Positions 2,777 to 24,054 of a stretch of 24,054 bases of DNA are shown one piece after another (position 1 is the first letter of the stretch; each line of letters begins with the position of its first letter). The DNA is from a virus (Duplodnaviria > Caudoviricetes): IMG/VR virus record IMGVR_UViG_3300038393_001590, positions 1 to 24,054 of that record; one strand, 5' to 3'. Both the position numbers and the translations under genes were made by a program. The notes under the pieces are model-generated. The model worked only from the letters and a program-made list of their open reading frames with translations. It searched no databases and was not told where the DNA came from.

Positions 2777-4174
2777 TTACAGTACCCGCCGGAAGAAGTC
2801 GTAAATCCCCATCGTTGGGTTCGCTGTCGCGTTGCTGTTCTGGCACGGTCCAACGCGGTCGATCGTCCCTAAGAAGCTTGTCTTCGCCACAGAAAAGACC
2901 TGCGTCCACGATCCATCGGTGCCCGTCATGGACGCGTTGAAGATAAGATTTGTTCCATCGTTCTTCACCTTCAAGTACAGCCAACGGTTCCAGTACGGTC
3001 CGTATGCGGTGCCCGATCCGCCCCAGCCGACGAAGTTAGAGGCATAGGCATTGAACGAAGTCTGCGAGTTCCAGTTGATGACCGACAGTTCCGATTGTGG
3101 CACGTTGCCGCGATAGTCGATCGCGAACGCGGTGATCTTCGTTCCGTCGCCGAGGCAGATGCCAGTCCAGTTGAAATTGTTTGCGTTGCCGACGGCGCCC
3201 ATCACCTTGACTTCGAATTCGTACGGCGTCGACGGCGTCGTCTTCCATAGCTGCCGAACGCTGTCGCCGCCGGCCGTTGTGCCCTGGAACGCGAGGTAAG
3301 ACTGGCCGACCGTGAAGGTGACGCCGGTGTCGTTCGTCTGCGTCCAGCTTCCCGAAAGCGCTGCTCCGGTGAACTCGTCGTCTAATGCGTTCGGCGAACC
3401 AGGCGTTAGATCGGGAGAACTCGAGACCCAGTCTGGCACCGAAGCCCCGCCCGCCGGCGTATTGCAGGATCCGTCGCCGCGAAGGTAGGTAGTCGAGTTG
3501 CAGGTACCGGAGAACAGGCCGTAAACATCGGCCGCGGCAGCGGCCGCAGTCGTGTTCAGTGCGGTTCGCTTGATGAGGCCGTTCGAACCAGGGTCGGCTA
3601 GTCCTGAGCTTCCGCAGCTTCCGATGCTCATGTTGCCGGCGCCGTCCGACTTGAAGCACCCCGAGGCATCGGACGACGGAAGCAGCCACGTGACCGATGT
3701 GACGCCCGTCGGAGACTTGAATGCGACGAAGTGCCCACTGCCGTCGAACAACTTGATCAGGCCCTGTGTCGTACCGTCGCCGACCGACCAGACCCCGGTC
3801 GCCACATCGAACTTGAGTCGCGCATCGCTGGAGAACAATCCCGACGAAGCGAACTGAATGTAGCCATCTGAACCAGAGGCTCCCGTCGCGGCGCCATAGA
3901 TCTTCCGCCAGATGCCCGAGCTTCCGGGGACGGAGCACTCATAGTGCGAGTCGTCGGTCGTCTTGTAAAAGATCGTAGGCCCGAAGCCAGGACCGCAGGC
4001 GGTCGGTAGCGACGTTCCAGACGTCGGCGAGTTTGTCGCGTTGCCCGTGCCGCCGTTGGCCGGCTGAAGAACGCCTTTGACCTGGGAATTCGTCGGCCCC
4101 AAATTGACCTGGGCGGCCGCGAAGCCGCCCAGCATCAGAACGATCGCGAGTTTACTTACGATAGAACGCAACAA
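2777..4174 (-). CDS. Signal-peptide-bearing tail-fibre-like protein with C-terminal ConA-like (beta-sandwich) domain (465 aa)
   Basis: TTG start with GGAG 6 nt upstream; N-terminus MLRSIVSKLAIVLMLGGFAAA|Q. Fibre-shaft motifs: KGVLQPANGGTG, SGSDGYIQFASSGLFSSDARLKFD, VAFKSPTGVTSVTWLLPSSD...SDGAGNMS and TTYLRGDGS. The C-terminal domain starts DDEFTGAALSGSW and ends GIYDFFRRVL. Confidence 0.7.
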   Translation of the reverse strand: MLRSIVSKLAIVLMLGGFAAAQVNLGPTNSQVKGVLQPANGGTGNATNSPTSGTSLPTACGPGFGPTIFYKTTDDSHYECSVPGSSGIWRKIYGAATGASGSDGYIQFASSGLFSSDARLKFDVATGVWSVGDGTTQGLIKLFDGSGHFVAFKSPTGVTSVTWLLPSSDASGCFKSDGAGNMSIGSCGSSGLADPGSNGLIKRTALNTTAAAAAADVYGLFSGTCNSTTYLRGDGSCNTPAGGASVPDWVSSSPDLTPGSPNALDDEFTGAALSGSWTQTNDTGVTFTVGQSYLAFQGTTAGGDSVRQLWKTTPSTPYEFEVKVMGAVGNANNFNWTGICLGDGTKITAFAIDYRGNVPQSELSVINWNSQTSFNAYASNFVGWGGSGTAYGPYWNRWLYLKVKNDGTNLIFNASMTGTDGSWTQVFSVAKTSFLGTIDRVGPCQNSNATANPTMGIYDFFRRVL

Positions 4175-10192: not shown

Positions 10193-12904
10193 CTAGCTCT
10201 TCTTGCGAACCGATCTGGTCCGGCTCGAGGTCAACTGCACGCCGCCCTTCTCTACGGTGTGGCTGATCTTCTTGATCAGCTCGCGAAGTGAAGCCCCATG
10301 GATGTGAACGACTGGCGTCTCGCGTGGCATGTGCTTGAAGATTGCCTCCGCGAACGCGCTCGTCGTGCGATCGTCGTCCAGTGGGATCGCGATTTCCGTC
10401 TGTCCCGGGCCCGATAGAGCAGCGGCGGTGTTCGCTGAACTCGCAGCATCGCCAAGGATCGCCATCGTCGGTCCGAAGACCATGCCGCCGGAGGCGAATC
10501 GCTGCACCTGCGTCGTTGTCGTCGGTGCGGTCTGCGTCTCCGAAACTGGCGTCGTTTCGATGGGCTTGGTTCCGTCTGGTGCGCCGGCAGTTTCGCCGCC
10601 TCCTGATTGTCCGGGCTTGATGCCATAGGCGAAAGAGCCGGCGATCGCCGCGACCGCGAAAAATTCCGCGGCTGATGCGAAGTCGGCGCCCGCGCGCCCT
10701 GGGTTCCAAAACGAGTCGGCTATTCCCCATGCAGTCCAGTACAGGCCCCACATGATGGCTCGCCCGGCAATTGAGGCTGCTTCTTCAGCGAGCGATTCGC
10801 GAAGTGCTCGACCGAGCGACTCCTGCCCCAAGACCCATCGAGATACCGCATTGCCGAAGGCCGCGGAGGTGTCCAGGATGACGTCGTCGAACGCCTTCTG
10901 GGTGTCGCTGAGGTCCTTGCGCTGTTTGCGCATTTCGGCCGACCAGTGATCGAGCAACTGGATGGTCGAGTTGTGCGACCGATTAAGCTTGTCAGTCGCC
11001 GCGGTATTCTTCTCTTCCGCTCCGGTCAGTTGATCGAGGACGACACGAATGCCGGCCAATTCGTCCTTGAACTGTTCGGCAAGTGCAAGGTCGCCTTTGT
11101 CGATAGCGAGACCGATCTTTGCCGTCAGGTTCTTCTCTGCCAGCTGTAGCATTGCGACCGACAGGTCGGCGATTCCATCGCCAAGTTCGCGAACCTTGTC
11201 GAGTGCCGCTTGCGTCTTATCTACTTCGTCCTGCCAGACCTGTCCGCTCTTTATTCCGAACTGCGCGAGTATGTCGGTGATCTCCTGTACTCGCTGGTTG
11301 ACCTCGCTCGGCAGCGGAATGATGTCATCCACGGGTGTGGCCGTGGTCTGGCTGAGCGCTTGCTTGATCGCCGCCTGTAGGGCCTGTACACCTTTCAATC
11401 GGAGCTCGACCAGCTTCGTCTGGTGCTGCTCTTCAAGCGCCTCGATCTGAGCGTGCAGTTCCTTGATGCGATCGACGTTTCGTGTCGGATCCTGCGAGAC
11501 GAGAGCAAGCGTTTCGCGCAGGCTCTTTAACGTCAGCTGGTACTGCTGTTCAGCGAAGTGCTGCTGGGCATCGATGAAGCTCGAATAGCCGGCCTTCGCG
11601 AGTGTTAGCTTCAGTTCTGACTCGGCCCGGGCAAGCTCGATGCGCGCCGCCATGATCGTCTTCTCGGCATTGATCGAGGCCTCGCCATGCTTGATCTGTT
11701 CGTCCAGCGCTTCCTTATCGAACTGCTTCGATATCGCAGCCTGCTGTTCTGCCTGCACCTTGAGCAACGATGTCAGCCGAAGAATGGTCTCGGCGGCTTT
11801 GTCCGCTTCTTCCTTCGTAACGTCGTGTACAGCGCTAAAGTCGACCGACTCTTGTTCTAGCCGATATTTGGCGAGTGTGTTCTGGGCTGCGCGCAGCGCC
11901 GCTTCGTTCTTATTAACTTCTTCGGTGAGGAGTTCGAATTCCTTGCGGGTCTTCGCCGATCCCTCGAGGTTGATCAGTTGATACGCCTTCTGCAACTCCA
12001 CAAGCTTTGTCGCCTGATCGGTGAGCGCCTTGTTGAGTTCGAGCGTGGCCTCGTATTGCTTCTTCTCGGCGTCGGTGTAGATGAAGGTCTCGGAAACAAA
12101 CTCCGTTAGCTTCTCGGTGGCTTGGACAATTAACTGGATCAGGAGAATGATCGCGAGGCCGGAGAAGGCGGTCTCCATGGCCTGCGCTACTAGGGGAAAC
12201 TGCTGTAGGAACTTGCCCACCTGATAAGAGCCCGTGACGCCGATCTCGTTTCCGAGTATCTGCGCCGTTCCGGCGGCCCTTCTCATTGATTCCGCTGAGC
12301 GCTCGCCGGCGGCTTCCGATTCAACACCGAATTTCAATGCAGCATCGGCTGCAGCTTTCAGAGCGAGTTCGGACTCTAAGGCAGCCTCAGCTTCGGCGCG
12401 GATCCCAGCCGTTGCCTCATGCGATGCGACCTCGACTTCTCGTTGTGCTGCCGCAAGCAAGGCTCCGGTTGTTGCTACTTTCTCTTCAGCTGTAGCAAGG
12501 GCAGTCAGCGCTTGCGTGTCGCCTTCTTCGGCAACGACAGCGGCCTTGATAGCTGCGTCGAGCTCGGCCTGTGCTTTCTTATGCTCGATGGTCGCGCGGG
12601 TCGCGGTATCGGTAGCACGGGCAAGCGCCAACCAACTCGAGTCGACAGCTTGTACGGCTGCGCTCGAAGTGGCTGCTGCTCCCTGCGCCGCCGCGCCGAT
12701 TTCCGCGCCGGCCTTGGTCGACTGATCGGCAGCGACCTGAGCAGATTGTCCTGCCTGCTCCCATGCTTGGCCGACGGTGTTGACCTGAGCCTGCACGGCC
12801 GGAGCCTTGGCGGTCGCGTCGGCTTCCACCTTCGTCCATGTCTGGTCGAGTTGGGTGGCGTCGCCGAGAAAATTAAAGATCGCGTCGCCTGCAGAGATCG
12901 CCAT
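10193..12904 (-). CDS. Tape measure protein, 903 aa
   Basis: Long Ala/Glu/Gln-rich helical protein after the chaperone genes. C-terminal motif RFASGGMVFGPTMAILGD...EIAIPLDD, with hydrophobic segments near residues 240-260 and 710-760. Confidence 0.92.
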   Translation of the reverse strand: MAISAGDAIFNFLGDATQLDQTWTKVEADATAKAPAVQAQVNTVGQAWEQAGQSAQVAADQSTKAGAEIGAAAQGAAATSSAAVQAVDSSWLALARATDTATRATIEHKKAQAELDAAIKAAVVAEEGDTQALTALATAEEKVATTGALLAAAQREVEVASHEATAGIRAEAEAALESELALKAAADAALKFGVESEAAGERSAESMRRAAGTAQILGNEIGVTGSYQVGKFLQQFPLVAQAMETAFSGLAIILLIQLIVQATEKLTEFVSETFIYTDAEKKQYEATLELNKALTDQATKLVELQKAYQLINLEGSAKTRKEFELLTEEVNKNEAALRAAQNTLAKYRLEQESVDFSAVHDVTKEEADKAAETILRLTSLLKVQAEQQAAISKQFDKEALDEQIKHGEASINAEKTIMAARIELARAESELKLTLAKAGYSSFIDAQQHFAEQQYQLTLKSLRETLALVSQDPTRNVDRIKELHAQIEALEEQHQTKLVELRLKGVQALQAAIKQALSQTTATPVDDIIPLPSEVNQRVQEITDILAQFGIKSGQVWQDEVDKTQAALDKVRELGDGIADLSVAMLQLAEKNLTAKIGLAIDKGDLALAEQFKDELAGIRVVLDQLTGAEEKNTAATDKLNRSHNSTIQLLDHWSAEMRKQRKDLSDTQKAFDDVILDTSAAFGNAVSRWVLGQESLGRALRESLAEEAASIAGRAIMWGLYWTAWGIADSFWNPGRAGADFASAAEFFAVAAIAGSFAYGIKPGQSGGGETAGAPDGTKPIETTPVSETQTAPTTTTQVQRFASGGMVFGPTMAILGDAASSANTAAALSGPGQTEIAIPLDDDRTTSAFAEAIFKHMPRETPVVHIHGASLRELIKKISHTVEKGGVQLTSSRTRSVRKKS

Positions 12905-15855: not shown

Positions 15856-15884
15856 AAGAAAAGGCCCGGGCGATTGCCCGGGCC
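15856..15884 (-). terminator. Intrinsic terminator after the major capsid gene
   Basis: GGCCCGGGC-AATC-GCCCGGGCC forms a perfect 9-bp stem followed by TTTTCTT, 20 nt after the capsid stop. Confidence 0.85.
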
Positions 15885-15904
15885 CATCAGGAGACGGACG
15901 ACGA

Positions 15905-17320
15905 CTAGGCGAGGAACGCTGCCGACATTCTCGGGTCGGTTGCTTTTCCGCCGAGGACGTGGCGGACTCTCCACCACACTGCATCGCTCTCGAAGTCGCC
16001 TTCGAGCGGGTTGGCCCCGCCGCCGCCGAGCATTACCTTGTTCGGAGCCTTCATGCAGAGCTCAGGAGCTTCGTGACCCTGCAAGAAGTTCAGCTTCGCG
16101 GCCGCGCCGTTGGCGAGGGTTGCGAACAGGTACCAGGTGGTATCCGCGTTTCCGCTGGTGTCGATGATCGGCAGGTACGGATTCACCTGGAGGGTGATGT
16201 TCATGTTCGCGACGATGTTCGCCGAGGTGCGGAACTGCATCGCCTTGCCCGAGGTCGAGTCGCCGCCGGCCGCGATGAGGGCTGCCTTGTTCAGGATCTG
16301 AAGGGCAGCGATCTCGAGAGCCGGAGGAACGACCAGCACGAAGCCGTCGATCAAGATCGGCTCACCATCGGAGTCCACCTGGTGCCGCAGCTTGGTCAAG
16401 CCGACGCCGAGGTTGTCGATCGTCAGTGCCGAGCTGGTGAACTTGTTGGTGATGGCCTTTCCGTCGATCGGGTGCGTGATCGTGGCACCGTATAGTCCAG
16501 TGCTCGGACCAGTGGAGGCCGCGAAGAGCTTCGTGGCTTCACGATACTCGGTTCGCAGGGCTGCCTTGGCCAAGCGATCGGCATTGTCGTTGAAGGCCCC
16601 AAGGTCATCGTTGATCAGCGACTCCCAGCTGAGCGGGAAGGTTCGACCGTACTTCTTCAGCGTGATCGAAACCTTGCCGTCGCCGAGCGACGCATCAGCC
16701 TTGTACTCGTCCTTCTGCACGACTTCGTTCAGTCCGCCTTCCAAGCCGTAGACGCCGATTGCATCCGCGGGGCGGAAGTCCATCTGCGTTCCGGTCTTGA
16801 GATAGGTGCGCCACGCGCCGTCAGCGGCCGACTTGTAGCGGGCGAGCAACTGACGATCGATGACGGTACCGAACAGGATCGGGAAGTCAGAGGTCGTCTC
16901 GGCTTCCGACAACAGGTAACGTCGTTTCGCGCGAGAGAATCCTGGCTTGTTCGTGATGAGCCCAATGAACTTACCGAGGGCCTCTTCGAAGCGATCGCCG
17001 CCTCGCTTTCCGGCTTCTCGAATAGAGACGCCGTCATCGTTGAGGCGATCCTGCGTTGTTGCGGCATCAGCCTCGTCGATCACGTCGAGGAAGCTGCGGC
17101 TGCCGATTACAGGAGCAGTCACCGCGGTGAGCACGCCAGCGTGGACGCCGCTCAGTGGGTTATGGCCGGTTGCGAGGCCATAGATGAATGCCGCCGCCAA
17201 GACAAGCAAGGCGATCGGCGAAGCGAACATGGCGAACTGCAGGCCGAGGACGGCGATCTTGCGTGCCGAGCGCTCGTATTCCATGTTCCGGTGCAACTTT
17301 CTGTTCTCTCCGGCTGTCAT
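15905..17320 (-). CDS. Major capsid protein (Mu gpT-like, HK97 fold) with an N-terminal hydrophobic leader, 471 aa
   Basis: Sequence TTSDFPILF...DFRP...LKKYGRTFPLSWESLINDDLGAF...LVVPPALE...TTWYLFA...LNFLQGHEAPEL...DFESDAVWWRVRHVLGGKATDPR. GGAG lies about 10 nt upstream of ATG 17320, and a terminator follows the gene. Confidence 0.92.
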   Translation of the reverse strand: MTAGENRKLHRNMEYERSARKIAVLGLQFAMFASPIALLVLAAAFIYGLATGHNPLSGVHAGVLTAVTAPVIGSRSFLDVIDEADAATTQDRLNDDGVSIREAGKRGGDRFEEALGKFIGLITNKPGFSRAKRRYLLSEAETTSDFPILFGTVIDRQLLARYKSAADGAWRTYLKTGTQMDFRPADAIGVYGLEGGLNEVVQKDEYKADASLGDGKVSITLKKYGRTFPLSWESLINDDLGAFNDNADRLAKAALRTEYREATKLFAASTGPSTGLYGATITHPIDGKAITNKFTSSALTIDNLGVGLTKLRHQVDSDGEPILIDGFVLVVPPALEIAALQILNKAALIAAGGDSTSGKAMQFRTSANIVANMNITLQVNPYLPIIDTSGNADTTWYLFATLANGAAAKLNFLQGHEAPELCMKAPNKVMLGGGGANPLEGDFESDAVWWRVRHVLGGKATDPRMSAAFLA

Positions 17321-17375
17321 TTGCCTTTTCTCCAGTGAAGGAAGTGGGTGAAGCTGGGGCCCTTGTGGCGGCTTG

Positions 17376-17744
17376 TTAGCCGGCGAGTCGAACGTCGATC
17401 GTCCCGGTTGCGCCAGAAGTCACGGCGCCGAGCGCGATGCCGAAGAAAACCTTGGTGTTGTTCTTGGTGATGGCGGCGGTGGATCCGTCGATGTACAGCT
17501 TGTCGCCGAATGCAACGGCCGAGTTGCCGCCGGAGTCGGTGCCGGTGACCGATACGCTGACCACGCCCTTCGCGAGGACGGGAATCACATCGGTTGTGGC
17601 CGCGGCATCGGTCTCCGCGACGCCAGGCAGCTGCCCGACGACGCAAGGATCGCCGCTGTTGACCAGGCCGTCGGAGTGCGACGGGTGGACCAGCGCGGAC
17701 TCGACAACGCCGATCACGTTGCCGGGATTTTTGAAATTCTTCAT
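17376..17744 (-). CDS. DUF2190-like capsid cement/decoration protein, 122 aa
   Basis: Sequence MKNFKNPGNVI...VNSGDPCVVGQLPGVAETDAA...AVAFGDKLYID...FFGIALGAV...TIDVRL. Strong GGGGAGG Shine-Dalgarno; adjacent to the capsid gene. Confidence 0.85.
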   Translation of the reverse strand: MKNFKNPGNVIGVVESALVHPSHSDGLVNSGDPCVVGQLPGVAETDAAATTDVIPVLAKGVVSVSVTGTDSGGNSAVAFGDKLYIDGSTAAITKNNTKVFFGIALGAVTSGATGTIDVRLAG

Positions 17745-17817: not shown

Positions 17818-19266
17818 TTACCGCCCTGCGGCTGCGATCTTGGCCTGGGCTTCGGTCAAACCGAAGGCCTGGAAACTCTCGACCAGGTTGGGCTTCTTCG
17901 CGTCCTTGTCCGACTCGTCGTTCTCGTTCGTCTTCTTGCCCATGTTGGTGACCTTGGTCGAGCCCCCGCCTGCAGCGGGTGCGATCGCGGCGATGTAATC
18001 CTTCTCCGCCTGGATCGCGGCTTCCATGCCATCAATCGTGACCGCTTCCTTGAACTGCGAAGCGATGCGATCGGCAGCGGGCTTGGGAAGCTTCGCGGCC
18101 TCGAGCAGCTCTTTCAATTTGGCGGCTGCGGTTGCCTTCTTTGCGGTCGACTCGGATTCCGATACCTTCGTCTCCAGAGCCGCAGACTTTTCCTTCTCCG
18201 CCGCGAGAGCGGCGTTTGCTTCCTGCAACTGCTGTTCTAGTGTCTTCACTTTGGCTACTTCCTCTCGGGCGTTGGATTCGATGAGCTCGACCAGGTCCTG
18301 CCGGCGCTCGCGCAACTGCTCGATCGTCATCAGTTCGAAGTCGAATTCATCACTGCGGTCAGACTCCAGGACCTCGCACTGGCCGCCCGCACCAGCAAAG
18401 GTCACAAAATCTACAGATCGCGCGGCGATCAGCCGCTCGACCATGTTCGTTTTCACGGTCTCAGAACCATCGGGGACATCGGCTTCGGAGCCGACGCCGA
18501 TCGCGCGGATCGAGACTCCCATCTCGTTCAGCAGTCCGGCTTCTTGCAGAGTCGCGAGCTTCTCCTTGAACGGCGGATCGATGACCTTCGCCTTCGCGCG
18601 GATCCTTCCATCGGACTCTGCCCAGGGCTTGCCGATCTGCGCGACCCACTTATTCACATCGCCTTCCGGCCGCGCGGTGTCCTCGGTCTTGGTCGCGTGG
18701 TTCGTGAACATCTTCGCGTTTTCGAAGATGCCCATGTCGCGCTTGAGGACCGTCGCCGGGTAGTAGCGGGTCTTCGATTTGTTCAGACCGGGCTTGATGA
18801 TGGTCAGGGTCAGCTCGCCGGTCTTCTTGTTGTACGAAGCCTCGGCCTCCTTCAGATCGCAGCCGAATGGCGCAAGCAGTCGTTGGGACTCGCCGAGCGG
18901 CTTGTAGGCGACTTCCACCTCGAGCGCGTCGCCGAAAGTGACGTTCCCGGCGGCATCGACCTTGTAGTCGCGCTGATAAAGGTCTCCATTCGTCGAGTAG
19001 ACAACCTTGTCGGTGAAGATATCGCGAATCCAGCAGTACACCGAGTTCTTGCCGACGCAGTTGGAGCAGCAGTTGCCGGCGCATTCATAGCCGCAACCGG
19101 TGCAGCAGGTGCCATCGCATGGATCGACCGAGGCTGCGCGACCGTTCAGCACGTTCGACAGCGCCTGCTGGACCTTTTGCTGCGTCCCGCTAAAGGACTG
19201 CGAGCTCGAGAGAACGGCTTCCTTGATAGCCTCAGCCGTCTTTTTTGCCTTTGCTTTTACCAGCAT
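17818..19266 (-). CDS. Prohead maturation protease-scaffold fusion, 482 aa
   Basis: AAGGAG Shine-Dalgarno. Protease core IIKPGLNKSKTRYYPATVL...MFTNH...MGVSIRA...SVDFVTFAGAGG gives candidate catalytic His and Ser. A Glu/Ala/Lys-rich coiled-coil scaffold tail follows. Confidence 0.85.
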   Translation of the reverse strand: MLVKAKAKKTAEAIKEAVLSSSQSFSGTQQKVQQALSNVLNGRAASVDPCDGTCCTGCGYECAGNCCSNCVGKNSVYCWIRDIFTDKVVYSTNGDLYQRDYKVDAAGNVTFGDALEVEVAYKPLGESQRLLAPFGCDLKEAEASYNKKTGELTLTIIKPGLNKSKTRYYPATVLKRDMGIFENAKMFTNHATKTEDTARPEGDVNKWVAQIGKPWAESDGRIRAKAKVIDPPFKEKLATLQEAGLLNEMGVSIRAIGVGSEADVPDGSETVKTNMVERLIAARSVDFVTFAGAGGQCEVLESDRSDEFDFELMTIEQLRERRQDLVELIESNAREEVAKVKTLEQQLQEANAALAAEKEKSAALETKVSESESTAKKATAAAKLKELLEAAKLPKPAADRIASQFKEAVTIDGMEAAIQAEKDYIAAIAPAAGGGSTKVTNMGKKTNENDESDKDAKKPNLVESFQAFGLTEAQAKIAAAGR

Positions 19267-19402
19267 CGAAATGTCTCCTTCGACCGAGCTTCAGAAAGTA
19301 CTCGACGAGCACCTTGTCCCAGTTGCATGAACATTCGCAGCCCTTGCAATCGATGCACATGCCGTGAACGCATCGCCAGCACATGACATGCTTCGTGGGC
19401 AT
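19232..19402 (-). CDS. Cys-rich 56-aa mini-protein (MPTKHVMCWRCVHGMCIDCKGCECSCNWDKVLVEYFLKLGRRRHFDAGKSKGKKDG); not in the ORF track
   Basis: The ATG overlaps the upstream stop (TGATG at 19400-19404), the ORF fills the gap before the protease gene, and it has 7 Cys in 19 residues. Confidence 0.6.
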   Translation of the reverse strand: MPTKHVMCWRCVHGMCIDCKGCECSCNWDKVLVEYFLKLGRRRHFDAGKSKGKKDG

Positions 19403-20298
19403 CAGTTCGCTACCGTTGCGGCGTCTTCCTCTTCCGGTGCTTCTTCGACCGGAGGCCGCGACCCGACCGTCGCACAGCGACAGTTCGGGTGGATCGGCGT
19501 CCTGTCGTATTCCATCCCGTCAGAATCAACGAAGGGCTGGTCGACTGGAACCGGTCCTGCATCCTTGATCGACGTGCAGATCGGGCACGCTTCCGGCGCC
19601 AGGATCAACTGCTTGTACTCGACGCCGAGCCGCTTCATATTGCGGATCGCGGCCTCGCTGAACGCATCGTTCATCTCGGTGTTGGCGATCATCTTCGCCC
19701 GATACACCGACATGTTCCGAAGCTCGGAGCGGATAAACCGTCCGAGACCTTCGACTCCGAGCTGCTCTTCGATACCGCGCTTGATAGCGTCCTGAAGCAG
19801 CTTCAACGTCGTGTCGTTGATGCCCTTGATCTGCATCGCCGCCCTGCGCGCTGCATACTCCGCGGCTTCCAGCCCCGTGATACCGATCTTCTCGATCGCC
19901 TTCAATATGGTGTCGTAGAGCGTCGGCTCGTCCGGTGGCGGACCTGGTGGCGGTGGAATCGCCTGCGGTCCTGCCTCCTTGAATTCTTCCTTCATCTGCC
20001 GGCGCGCGACTTTGTCACCGTCGAGCAGCGCCAGGTAGATATGACCTGACAGCACCCTGAGCAGAAACGGCGATTCCGATCGGAGTGCTCTCCGAATGTC
20101 CAGCTCGAGCGACTGCGCTCCGGTTTCGGACTTCGCTTCCCCCCAGTCGAGCTTTCGCAGGTCAAGCCACAGCTGGTCGAAGTAGACGCGCAGGTCCTTT
20201 TCGCAGGAGTTCACGCGCTTAATGCCGACCAACGACATCACTCCGGGCTTGGTTGCAGCCTCGGTCAATAGTGCGACGATGCCCTCGAGCAAGTTCAC
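19402..20298 (-). CDS. Head morphogenesis / minor head protein (SPP1 gp7 / Mu gpF-like), 298 aa
   Basis: Motifs IKGINDTT, RAKMIANTEMNDA, ACPIC and PIHPNCRCA; position after the portal. Confidence 0.9.
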   Translation of the reverse strand: MNLLEGIVALLTEAATKPGVMSLVGIKRVNSCEKDLRVYFDQLWLDLRKLDWGEAKSETGAQSLELDIRRALRSESPFLLRVLSGHIYLALLDGDKVARRQMKEEFKEAGPQAIPPPPGPPPDEPTLYDTILKAIEKIGITGLEAAEYAARRAAMQIKGINDTTLKLLQDAIKRGIEEQLGVEGLGRFIRSELRNMSVYRAKMIANTEMNDAFSEAAIRNMKRLGVEYKQLILAPEACPICTSIKDAGPVPVDQPFVDSDGMEYDRTPIHPNCRCATVGSRPPVEEAPEEEDAATVAN

Positions 20299-20483: not shown

Positions 20484-20677
20484 CAGGCGGCATTCCCGTG
20501 GAACTTCAATATGCGAGCAACGTCGTCGGTCTTCGAATAGCAGCGGCGATGGAAGTAGCCGACTGCGTGACAGGTCGTACACCACTCGAACACGCATCCG
20601 AACGGAATCTGCCACCAGTGCAGCCGCTCCCTGCAGCCATGGCACACCAGTGCACGAATCATGGGTTGTCCGCTCAT
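20483..20677 (-). CDS. Hypothetical 64-aa putative zinc-binding protein (CHGC...CTTC...HRRC)
   Basis: ATGA overlap with the portal stop and TGATG overlap with the next ORF; two CxxC plus one HxxC. Confidence 0.6.
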   Translation of the reverse strand: MSGQPMIRALVCHGCRERLHWWQIPFGCVFEWCTTCHAVGYFHRRCYSKTDDVARILKFHGNAA

Positions 20678-22296
20678 GCCGCCAGGGCCTCCGATACTTT
20701 CAACAGTGCGGCTGTCAGATGTTGCGCAGCCTCAGTGCTGAGATTCGGAGCGAGTGGCGCAGCTCCCTGCTTGCCCGCGGCAGCGGCGGCTTTCGCCAGC
20801 ACTGCCTGGCGCTTGGCATCGTCGGCGGCGAGCTCTTCACGCTTCTCGCGGATCGAGTCCATCACGTCTTCGACGTTGTTGATGCCGAGGGCGACAAGCA
20901 TTGCCTGCAGTACTTCGTCGACGCCGATCTCGGGGAACAAGGCTCCGATCGCAGTGATCGCCTGGCCGAGGTTTCTCAAGTCGTCCTTAAGGATCGGCGG
21001 CAGGTCGATATCGATGACGGCCGGCTCGTCCTCAGGCTGTTCATTCAGCACGATCGAGAAGACGTCGCGGATAGCGTCGGTCCATAGCCGCTGGTAAGCG
21101 GTGAAGGACTTCAGCATCGGCAATTCCATCGCAGTCGCCGTGGCCAGGTTGCCGGTCGAGGGATCGCCAAAGTAGTGCAGCATTATGTTCGTCGCTGCAC
21201 AGACCATCAGCTTCAGGCCGTCTCCATCCTGCTTCGCATCGCCGGCGCCAGTGGCGCGTGGCATCTGCTCGAGGTTCGCGCCTGCATTCTGGAACCAGGT
21301 GGATCCCGGTGCTCCTTGCGGATTCTTCTCGAGCTGAGTTCCACCGGTCTCGACGTGGCTGGACTGCACACGCTTCTTCAGCTGGTCGAGAAGTGCTTGG
21401 CCGCCCTTGATCGTGAGCTTGTGTGCGAACTTTGAAAGCGCCTGTGTGATCGCAACACGCGCTTCCATGAAGCGGCGATGCTCGCGCGACCAGTCGAGCG
21501 CGGGCAGCAGCAAACCGTTGCCGCGCCAGCCAAAGTCATCGAAGGGTAGGTGGTAGACGACGACGTCCTCTTCGAGCGTGATGGTTTTGCCTGTCTCGGG
21601 GTCCTTCTGTTCCTGAGCGAGGGCTTTGTCTTCCTCGGTAGCGGTCCAGTCGGCGAAGTAAAGGACCTTGTTGCTCGAGGCGAGCACGCGGCGATAGGCC
21701 AGCACATGTTCGTCGTCGTCGGGATCCGTGATGCGGTCCGTGATCTGGATCGGGTCGATGGTGCGGATGATCTTGTCTTCGGCATCGGGTTCGCCGAAGA
21801 TCGCGAAGAAGATCTCGCCATCGACCAGGAGCCGACGTGAGAGCTTCTGCATGCCGCGGGAGCTGAGGAGTGTGCGGTTTGCGCGAGCTTTCCAGAACTT
21901 GTTGAGCTTCTGCTGGATAGGATTGGTGCCTGCGGTCTTCGACTTGCCGGGCTTCGCTGTCTTGTTTTTCCCCGCGACGTTGAAGCTGATGCCGTCGCCG
22001 ATGCCGTAATCGGTCCAGATTCTGACAGCCTGGTGCGCGAGCGGGTCACGGCTCCAGTACATGCGGGCGCGCTTGACGAGGACCTTGCGCGTGGCGCCGT
22101 CGATCTCCCCGATCGAATTCTGCGACATCGGGTTGATCCAGCCGCGGTCATCGAGTGCGAGCTCGAGGTCGGCACGGGTAAAAGCTTCGGCGAGCTCGGG
22201 GATACCGATGAGCGCTTCGGCCATCTCCGAGGCGGAGAACTGGCGGCTTGAGCCCTTACTTCCTGTTTTCCGACTTGGTTTGAGGGTCTTCTTCAC
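20674..22296 (-). CDS. Portal protein (~540 aa)
   Basis: Position and size fit. Sequence RARMYWSRDPLAHQAV...LLVDGEIFF...IDPIQITDRITDPDD...RGNGLLLPAL...YFGDPSTGNLATATAMELP. The likely start is GTG 22296, overlapping the upstream TGA. Confidence 0.88.
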   Translation of the reverse strand: MKKTLKPSRKTGSKGSSRQFSASEMAEALIGIPELAEAFTRADLELALDDRGWINPMSQNSIGEIDGATRKVLVKRARMYWSRDPLAHQAVRIWTDYGIGDGISFNVAGKNKTAKPGKSKTAGTNPIQQKLNKFWKARANRTLLSSRGMQKLSRRLLVDGEIFFAIFGEPDAEDKIIRTIDPIQITDRITDPDDDEHVLAYRRVLASSNKVLYFADWTATEEDKALAQEQKDPETGKTITLEEDVVVYHLPFDDFGWRGNGLLLPALDWSREHRRFMEARVAITQALSKFAHKLTIKGGQALLDQLKKRVQSSHVETGGTQLEKNPQGAPGSTWFQNAGANLEQMPRATGAGDAKQDGDGLKLMVCAATNIMLHYFGDPSTGNLATATAMELPMLKSFTAYQRLWTDAIRDVFSIVLNEQPEDEPAVIDIDLPPILKDDLRNLGQAITAIGALFPEIGVDEVLQAMLVALGINNVEDVMDSIREKREELAADDAKRQAVLAKAAAAAGKQGAAPLAPNLSTEAAQHLTAALLKVSEALAA

Positions 22297-22553
22297 GCGC
22301 TCACCCTGGTCATGACCTTCAACGGGAAGTACAGCCCAGCCCACGTGCTATCGGCTGCCGGCAGCGCCTGATTCATCTTCGCCGGTGCGATGAAGTACGA
22401 CTCGTCCTGGCACGCACCGACAGCGCCAAGCTCATCGCTGAATACGCCTTGGAACGACCACTTACCGTCGCCGATGACCTTGCCGCAGATCCAGACGGGT
22501 TCGCGGCCTTCGAACACTCGCCGCTGCTTCGCGATGTCGCTCGCTTTGCTCAT
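22293..22553 (-). CDS. Hypothetical phage protein, 86 aa
   Basis: Coupled on both sides (TGAATG and GTGA); globular-looking sequence VWICGK...WSFQGVFSDE..AVGAC...YFIAP...WAGLYFP. Confidence 0.7.
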   Translation of the reverse strand: MSKASDIAKQRRVFEGREPVWICGKVIGDGKWSFQGVFSDELGAVGACQDESYFIAPAKMNQALPAADSTWAGLYFPLKVMTRVSA

Positions 22554-22964: not shown

Positions 22965-23060
22965 TTAGCCGCTCCAGTTCAGGCCGTCATTCGACGAGCT
23001 CATCCACAGGCGGCCATCGATGGTCTTGCCGATCTTGAAGAAGTCTTTCTGACTGTCCAT
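22965..23060 (-). CDS. Putative 31-aa mini-protein (MDSQKDFFKIGKTIDGRLWMSSSNDGLNWSG); not in the ORF track
   Basis: The ATG overlaps the terminase stop (TGATG), and the TAA ends 1 nt before the next start, exactly filling the gap. Confidence 0.45.
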   Translation of the reverse strand: MDSQKDFFKIGKTIDGRLWMSSSNDGLNWSG

Positions 23061-24054
23061 CACATCCACCCCTGGTCGTAGTCGTCCAGGTCGCTCGAGA
23101 TCGTGATCTCGTCGCCCGAAACGATCACTTCTTCCTGCTCGGCTCCGACTACCGGCCTCGTGAAGTACGTCAAGCCGTGGACTACGCAGTCAACCCAGTC
23201 GTCGTTCGCCCCTTTCGGGAACGTCGACGTCTCATCCAAAAAATCATCGAGCCAGTCGGCACGCTCCGGTAGCCAGCACGTCCCAGCGTTCTGGTAACCG
23301 CTGACGCCGTGTGCCCTGACTTCCTTCGACTCGATCGCCGGCATGCCCAGAACGGGAATGATTGGAACCGCGCGCCTCGCGCCATCAGGTCCGATCCACT
23401 CGCCCACCAGGTTGTTCGCCTCGATCTGTTGTCGAAGCGAGATACCTGAACCCTTGTTCTCAACCAGGAGCCGCTCGGGGTAGCGTCCATAACGCGCGCC
23501 AGCCTGCTCCCATCGGTCATAAACCTTGGCCACCAGCTGCGGGAACGGAACGCGATCGCGCCAGGCGTCCGGTACCGCATAGCCCACCTGCGTGTGCAGC
23601 AGATCGATGCCGGCCGAATAATCGTTGTCCTTCTTCTCCTCGAGCGCGGTGTCATACACCTGAATCAGTCGCTCGATGACTGGCAGCTGCTGGAAGTACT
23701 TCCAAGCTCCTCGCTGGAAGATCGTGCCCTGTGCAGCGATGGGTGCCTGTTGGTACAGTGCGGACCAGAACGTTGGACCTTGGTCGACTTGGATCCGGTC
23801 GAGCTCTTCCCTGCTCTGGAACTGCGGCCAGAGAGCCTCATACTTCGGCAGGTACTTCTTCTCGCCTGTCTTCGTGTTCCAGATGTAACTTGATCGTCCA
23901 TCGTCATTCGTCGCCGCGAGGCAGATGACCACCCACTGCGACGCCCTCTTGTCCTTCAGTGCCGCCTTCAGCAACCGCCCAGCGAGGTCGTCGTCGTGCC
24001 ACCTGGTCTGCTGCAGGGTGATCGTGCCGCCTGGCATCAAGCGTGATAGCAGGG
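23060..24054 (-). CDS. terL: Terminase large subunit, C-terminal part (5'-truncated by the window edge)
   Basis: Coupling-motif region QQTRWHDDDLAGRL, WSALYQQAP, and RNase H-like nuclease motifs VYDTA, DNDYSA, VENKGSG and FPKGANDDWVD. The frame is open to the window end. Confidence 0.93.
   Translation of the reverse strand, partial: LLSRLMPGGTITLQQTRWHDDDLAGRLLKAALKDKRASQWVVICLAATNDDGRSSYIWNTKTGEKKYLPKYEALWPQFQSREELDRIQVDQGPTFWSALYQQAPIAAQGTIFQRGAWKYFQQLPVIERLIQVYDTALEEKKDNDYSAGIDLLHTQVGYAVPDAWRDRVPFPQLVAKVYDRWEQAGARYGRYPERLLVENKGSGISLRQQIEANNLVGEWIGPDGARRAVPIIPVLGMPAIESKEVRAHGVSGYQNAGTCWLPERADWLDDFLDETSTFPKGANDDWVDCVVHGLTYFTRPVVGAEQEEVIVSGDEITISSDLDDYDQGWM

Follow-up and report, generated by a model that had tools for sequence, protein, structure and literature searches.

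Why does the capsid protein of a tailed phage begin with what looks like a membrane segment? The question is raised by the virus record IMGVR_UViG_3300038393_001590 (Caudoviricetes), positions 1 to 24,054 of which were examined; this whole stretch of 24,054 nt is called the window here. Its open reading frame at 15905-17320 on the minus strand encodes a capsid protein of 471 aa, which the original prediction had described as possibly a precursor anchored in the membrane by an N-terminal leader and later released by proteolysis. Sequence comparison and modelling indicated that one homologous leader, tied to one host lineage, stands both on HK97-fold capsids and on others that are probably jelly-roll proteins, which is new. 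No transmembrane leader of an icosahedral phage capsid was found in the CC-licensed PMC and bioRxiv literature (subscription journals excluded). The parts of the gene are the following.

17330..17333, minus strand: Shine-Dalgarno (SD) sequence GGAG, 9 nt upstream of the ATG at 17320
17258..17320, minus strand: n-region of the leader, aa 1-21, with the basic motif AG[EQ]xRKxxxN[ML]x5AR
17165..17257, minus strand: hydrophobic segment H1, aa 22-52, a predicted membrane segment with an invariant Pro35 and a frequent Gly26
17135..17164, minus strand: His/Gly loop, aa 53-62, nearly without Lys or Arg
17102..17134, minus strand: weak second apolar stretch, aa 63-73 (VLTAVTAPVIG), a candidate site for a host protease
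16904..17095, minus strand: ordinary N-domain of the family, aa 76-139, with hydrophobic-x-E-A sites at 83, 102, 113 and 139
16901..16912, minus strand: L-S-E/A, aa 137-140, the predicted maturation cut, with E139 in 110/117 and A140 in 110/117 sequences
15905..16903, minus strand: capsid body, aa 140-471, PF25209 / phrog_133, HK97-type by family

The leader joins a basic n-region to a long apolar segment. The 29 uncharged residues at aa 22-50 that had been seen after the basic N-terminus were borne out, and the run is even longer, since residues 22-52 (31 aa) contained no D, E, K, R or H and residues 22-74 no D, E, K or R. The top 19-residue Kyte-Doolittle mean (KD19) of the window leader was 2.21, which was reached by 36/5000 shuffles in the first 75 aa, and the first 60 aa of the leaderless homologues (n=107) never exceeded 0.88. 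A segment inside the capsid, aa 322-340, had a KD19 of 2.05, so hydropathy by itself is no proof and conservation weighs more. The residues A3, G4, R7, K8, N12, A19 and R20 were invariant across 17 leaders. Statistics of the anatomy were taken over 35 leaders, with L103 left out because the motif expression failed on its leader. Among these, the median KD19 of H1 was 2.5, and K/R made up 213/735 residues of the n-region versus 13/536 of the loop, where His accounted for 79/536. This charge pattern together with H1 fits a membrane segment with its N-terminus inside, as expected from the positive-inside rule. The second apolar stretch, earlier placed at aa 55-73, was present but weak in the window (KD19 1.41), and over the 35 leaders it was marginal (median KD19 1.18), which left the proposed helical hairpin, and a C-in topology, unsupported; the second segment may be marginal or re-entrant. 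Searches with the leader gave no Pfam match above the cut-off, no NCBIfam match and no usable match in the ESM Atlas, and aa 1-140 gave no PHROG match. No single conserved face of the helix was seen; the conservation moment was 0.10 and all faces were conserved.

AlphaFold2 modelled aa 3-51 as a single helix with pLDDT of 53-72 (48.6 for the whole model, a low confidence). Since this helix adjoins the helical N-domain, the leader could be an assembly element that never meets a membrane, coiled or bundled as a scaffold inside the prohead and digested at maturation. The known counterpart would be the delta domain of HK97 gp5, an N-terminal pro-region that is digested at maturation and forms a soluble coiled coil. 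Both precede an HK97-fold capsid, but the delta domain is soluble and the leader hydrophobic. The run of 31 residues without charge, and the presence of the leader on capsids of unrelated scaffolding geometry, make such a role improbable.

The leader is coding, in frame, provided with its own ribosome-binding site and conserved at the protein level. The GGAG at the ATG at 17320, the 55-nt gap to the upstream gene (end 17376) and the lack of an in-frame ATG from aa 32 to the capsid body were all reproduced from the original prediction; up to codon 160, the only in-frame ATGs are those at positions 1, 13 and 31. Pairing with the anti-SD sequence was -6.4 kcal/mol for ATG1 and -6.6 kcal/mol for TTG9, and initiation at TTG9 or ATG13 would still keep the hydrophobic part. 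The stored gene call (P0002) starts at Met13, the leader having been clipped by the gene caller. GTG codons at 63, 67 and 80, and a Met within the second stretch in several relatives, could suggest that translation begins at a downstream GTG, the open frame before it being incidental. A start of this kind had been named beforehand as a finding that would count against the leader, and the pairing at GTG63, GTG67 and GTG80 was weak (-2.4, -1.5 and -2.0 kcal/mol) compared with that of ATG1. The start of the leader paired at -5.3 to -9.2 kcal/mol in 9/10 loci with upstream DNA (the tenth at -3.3), its residues were kept while third codon positions varied, and the start Met of the family was missing in the 13 leader-bearing PF25209 proteins. 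We regard an untranslated leader as very improbable. An element acting at the RNA level was also rejected, as the leader region had a fold z-score of -0.19, no Rfam match and variable third positions.

The order of basic n-region and hydrophobic h-region is also that of a signal for export by the Sec/SRP (signal recognition particle) route. Read in this way, the leader would have a long c-region cut by signal peptidase I, and capsid protein in the periplasm would be a decoy or a side product. The classic n/h/c order, a c-region poor in K/R, Ala-rich ends such as VMAAAAAP and VALAVAP, and ordinary signal-peptide-like starts on neighbouring genes agree with it. Where an export signal would have an A-x-A site shortly after its h-region, the leader has an Ala-rich stretch about 10-25 aa downstream of H1. 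However, no in-frame ATG would supply a leaderless cytoplasmic pool, the downstream GTG codons are weakly SD-paired, and proheads must be cytoplasmic for DNA packaging. The length of the hydrophobic run, about 30 aa, and its central Pro are moreover atypical of an export signal, and export has accordingly little to commend it.

The capsid body matched PF25209 (Phage_capsid_4) over aa 139-464 with an E-value of 9.6e-37 and 128 bits (cut-off 27). The best Foldseek rows of the low-confidence capsid model were capsids and encapsulins, none at E<=0.001. Homologues were taken as the best 120 of 719, including the window's own protein, so that 119 were compared. Within this set the leader was present in 12/119 (46-86% identity) and absent in 107/119. 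Because the start Met of most leaderless relatives corresponds to aa 74-77 (three others are fragments with a later start), the add-on is limited to about 75 aa; on this alignment it is aa 1-75, and aa 76-139 are the normal N-domain of the family. The extension to about aa 140 that was first described before the recognisable body thus stood as far as PF25209 begins at aa 139, but the added part is about 75 aa and not 139. All three homologues at 84-86% identity retained the leader, so that its absence from close homologues, the other finding named beforehand as counting against it, was not observed. Identity of the n-region to the 12 family leaders was 52-81% versus 51-91% for the capsid body, and in the nine distant relatives 52-71% versus 51-64%.

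Leaderless capsids are genuine by these comparisons and not artefacts of gene calling. Among 80 viral loci from the family alignment, only in L103 did a stand-alone capsid gene begin with a hydrophobic leader, and a leader hidden Markov model (HMM) run over all frames of the other 79 loci found none (that scan missed L103, which was found in another scan). On the tree of the capsid body (117 rows, four short or duplicate rows being excluded), the leader needed 7 changes, at least 4 of them forced by well-supported branches, and a single origin within PF25209 was rejected by the approximately unbiased (AU) test (p 6e-70, 47-row subset). The leader therefore appears scattered over the tree, where repeated gain and repeated loss are indistinguishable, and it is dispensable for the PF25209 capsid type, 107/119 being without it. 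The leaders of L103:5983-6198 and L196 (G803:C51:114711-114887), one on a PF25209 and one on a PF05065 capsid, form a divergent class with ARFxQxFxGxR in place of RNMx5AR; L187 and L194 seem intermediate. Separately, L199-L204, from the Acidobacteriota family described below, hold PF25209 capsids 24-29% identical to the query, in frames of 600-840 aa that resemble protease-capsid fusions.

The leader was not confined to this capsid family. When a degenerate DNA pattern for the n-region was scanned over viral and metagenome contigs, 8/98 matches were leader-capsid genes, none of them PF25209, and the other 90 were judged by eye to be chance. Five of the eight loci (three distinct proteins) encoded HK97-type capsids of PF05065, in which the leader precedes a charged, delta-like region; the proteins of the other three had no Pfam match. 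For a model of this Pfam-less family, the top four Foldseek rows were PR772/PRD1 P3 (E 4.7e-4 to 7.8e-4, probability 0.99), although the model is weak (TM about 0.2, pLDDT 45.4, second barrel unresolved). A P-loop ATPase gene, below the family cut-offs, adjoins the carrier gene in L043 and L068, and L043 has a weak Rep_1 match. From this weak fold match and the gene context we hold with moderate confidence that the carriers L043/P0128, P0134-P0136, P0138, L026 and L068 are double jelly-roll capsids; some carriers are probably single jelly-roll proteins. A phmmer search of 1.84 billion representatives returned 5 matches, including two proteins of about 300 aa; for one of them the nearest named clusters, those of PM2 P2 and PRD1 P3, give no more than a lead (score 0.77). 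All 24 matches of a profile search of longer proteins fell in these carrier capsid groups (8000 candidates examined, some of the search's own seeds being missed).

Similarity between the window capsid and those of the other families was restricted to the leader, at 67% over 43 aa for P0132 and 46% over 54 aa for P0134. The leader is one homologous, portable module, found only on viral capsid-type genes or their fragments, and its presence on unrelated capsid families suggests a partner on the host side. A tree of 36 leaders (50 columns) did not resolve the direction of transfer, and clades per family were not rejected (p 0.20, 0.20 and 0.38). No leader matched in 50,697 GenBank records of isolated phages, and the exact pattern over GTDB contigs gave 5 matches, none with a leader.

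Conservation of this degree could also mean that the released leader is itself a product, a small membrane peptide made 1:1 with capsid subunits and acting on a host membrane protein, either for the timing of lysis or to block a defence that senses capsids. The n-region matches the capsid body in conservation and surpasses it in the nine distant relatives, and the conservation of all helix faces goes beyond the generic needs of a signal peptide. However, the search for short forms, made over 3363 candidates of 36-149 aa, yielded a single one, the 86-aa P0139, whose tail by eye resembles a frameshifted capsid junction, and no copy was present elsewhere in the 79 leaderless capsid loci. A function of the freed peptide is rather unlikely on this balance. 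At the protein level P0122 and P0139 both bear the leader and end early in an apparently shifted frame, through sequencing error or a broken gene.

The leader HMM was run over samples of Acidobacteriota genomes. There were matches in 1/401 genomes of a sample of the phylum (that of G001), in 2/401 of the order of G194 and in 4/301 of the family of G591; these three samples overlap. All four in the family sample were viral capsid-type genes. The G591 match lies in a tailed prophage on a 1.05-Mb contig, and the G194 match, a jelly-roll-like gene amid virus-like ones, stands near truB on a contig of 1.8 Mb. Two further matches were PF05065 capsids, one of them L195 from G919, an unpublished genome whose use needs its depositors' permission. 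The host of the window phage is therefore inferred to be a member of Acidobacteriota. In the virus-like region L190-L192 (G194:C2:236000-276000), near host truB and rhomboid genes, a jelly-roll-type gene is accompanied by genes for an Arg-rich NP-repeat protein and for a resolvase.

The genes upstream of the capsid gene supply the head-module context of PF25209 (terminase, portal, MuF, protease and cement), and with it the likely means of processing.

15862..15885, minus strand: terminator-like hairpin just 3' of the capsid gene
17376..17744, minus strand: capsid cement protein, PF09956, without leader
17818..19266, minus strand: probable prohead protease-scaffold, phrog_29592 (N-terminal part), with 12 hydrophobic-x-E-[AS] sites
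19402..20298, minus strand: MuF-like minor head protein, by family matches
20674..22344, minus strand: portal protein, by family match
23060..24052, minus strand: terminase large subunit, cut by the end of the window

Apart from phrog_29592, the protease-scaffold had no Pfam, NCBIfam protease or PDB match. It contains NH, GVS and DFV motifs, which can be read as a catalytic triad. Its 12 [LIVMF]-x-E-[AS] sites compare with a shuffle mean of 2.0 (0/1000 shuffles had as many), and the protease-scaffold of L103 repeats the pattern with 11 sites. The capsid has 4, all at aa<=139 (p 0.012). Sites of the hydrophobic-x-E-[AS] type, mostly near the ends, also occur in the portal (4), MuF (4) and cement (1, at aa 15) proteins, with weak enrichment (p 0.08, 0.02 and 0.12). 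The proteases of T4, phiKZ and SPN3US cleave after Glu in short motifs (PMC5694885). The mature capsid is predicted to start at Ala140 after the phage protease has trimmed the N-domain. Because the LxE/A site is conserved equally in leaderless relatives, it is no evidence for release of the leader itself. The idea of proteolytic release survived to the extent that cleavage sites are predicted, including the conserved LxE/A at 137-140.

A second possibility is that the anchor persists, the subunits being held at the membrane while the prohead forms on or around it and being released by the phage protease only; in the jelly-roll viruses the leader would then remain with the lipid vesicle inside the particle. 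Such an anchor would suit jelly-roll viruses that contain a membrane. The hydrophobic-x-E-A sites of the capsid, four in number, all lie between leader and body, and the leader is found on PRD1-like capsids. The N-domains of HK97-type capsids face the interior of the shell, and for this reason a persistent anchor on every such subunit would enclose membrane. The equal conservation of LxE/A in leaderless relatives means that the site is not there for the leader, and the second helix is weak. Published systems can be cited on both sides. The N-terminal residues of PR772 P3 anchor it to the viral membrane, so that a capsid N-terminus is bound to lipid in PRD1/PR772; P3, however, uses residues 1-6 of a surface helix in place of a long hydrophobic leader, and is not common to tailed phages (PMC6750898). 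One of our carrier families resembles P3. The T4 prohead is built on the inner membrane and departs from it once cleavage has taken place (PMC9958956), and T4 gp23/gp21 resembles the system proposed here in the removal of an N-terminal part after Glu by the prohead protease and in assembly at the inner membrane (PMC9958956, PMC5694885). Unlike here, the tether of T4 is the portal, with gp40 and YidC, and the passages cited give gp23 no membrane segment (PMC9958956, PMC5694885). The counterpart of the T4 propeptide would be aa 76-139, to which the leader is additional. On these grounds a persistent anchor seems unlikely, though it deserves consideration.

The best reading, which we put a little short of an even chance, is that the leader acts as a transient membrane tether cleaved by the host, analogous to the leaders processed by the host protease Prp but inserted in the membrane. 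The leader would insert into the inner membrane of the Acidobacteriota host so that its basic end lies on the cytoplasmic side, while the capsid body would stay cytoplasmic through a hairpin or re-entrant topology. A host membrane protease would then cut near residues 63-75 and free a near-normal precursor ahead of shell closure, after which the phage prohead protease would trim the N-domain at hydrophobic-x-Glu sites to give the start at Ala140, as in leaderless relatives. The benefit may be that highly expressed subunits are held and concentrated at the membrane. The proteases of the carriers differ, with S49 in L194, a Glu type inferred for the window phage and none seen in the jelly-roll loci, and therefore a common remover of the leader would be encoded by the host. 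The leader is grafted at the position of the start Met in leaderless relatives; as it is attached at the usual start of each family, on carriers unlike in fold and protease, a partner on the host side is the simplest common factor. Of the membrane-anchored precursor first proposed, coding, conservation, membrane-segment character and the positive-inside pattern held up, whereas the hairpin was not supported. That the leader is portable between unrelated capsid families was not part of the proposal.

Several results weigh against a host-cleaved tether. The second stretch had a median KD19 of 1.18 (range 0.31-1.74), under the usual level of a membrane helix, and the C-flank after it was net neutral, with 83 K/R and 83 D/E in 420 residues. 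Membrane character was judged by Kyte-Doolittle alone. No host protease for the leader was found, and no host protein with the leader motif was present in the sampled Acidobacteriota genomes (401, 401 and 301, overlapping). Of two other phyla, 201 genomes each were sampled; one phylum yielded a single partial match, put down to chance, and the other nothing, and samples of this size do not suffice to prove host restriction. Integrated close relatives of the window phage were not found, its host being deduced from the leader.

Among known systems the Prp leaders come closest. The host protease Prp cleaves a motif common to non-homologous structural proteins of Staphylococcus phage 80alpha, and the leader resembles those of the 80alpha capsid and scaffold as an N-terminal add-on to non-homologous structural proteins within one host lineage (PMC5744158). 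Prp leaders, however, are 13-14 aa long, with a cut at F|A and a resemblance to ribosomal L27, which they mimic (PMC5744158), whereas the present leader has about 75 aa with 31 uncharged residues, and no host protein that it mimics was found in the sampled Acidobacteriota. The leader is no member of the Prp group, given this length and an LQFA at 27-30 that was not conserved across the alignment.

Procoat of phage M13 adopts a hairpin topology, with two membrane spans and both ends basic. The leader departs from this pattern in the KD19 of its second segment and in its neutral C-flank. M13 procoat (gp8) is likewise a major coat protein with a leader, inserted into the inner membrane through YidC (PMC8310372), but M13 is a filamentous phage whose coat, when mature, is a membrane protein, while here the fold is soluble and icosahedral and the second segment is weak.

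Some observations concern other genes. After the tail-fibre gene, the proteins at 2777-4174 and 1010-2776 of the window (minus strand) have signal-peptide-like N-termini ending in A-A-A-Q, and one of them has Laminin_G_3. Similar starts were seen by eye at L185:3142, at 12568 and 14225 of L184, at L016:5957, and at 16815 and 18346 of L194. At the end of the tail module, on the opposite strand (2-982, plus), lies a GT87 glycosyltransferase gene, either for host-surface modification or part of flanking host DNA. Finally, L194:13495-13932 and L184:11391-11750 appear by eye to encode homologous small proteins of the neck region, of which only one starts like a signal peptide.

Acidobacteriota are abundant soil bacteria whose viruses have barely been studied, and the leader motif could be used as a host marker and as a finder of capsid genes for unclassified soil viruses. 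One homologous N-terminal module is carried by capsids of two separate virus realms, the HK97-fold and the jelly-roll type, which suggests a step of capsid assembly imposed by the host. The window phage offers a testable case of tailed-phage heads being assembled in link with the membrane through the capsid protein. A broader and doubtful proposal is that a portable membrane anchor on the major capsid protein is common to the tailed phages of Acidobacteriota and to their jelly-roll viruses with a membrane, so that HK97-fold proheads are built on, or even around, the host membrane. If true, this would be an assembly route spanning two virus realms.
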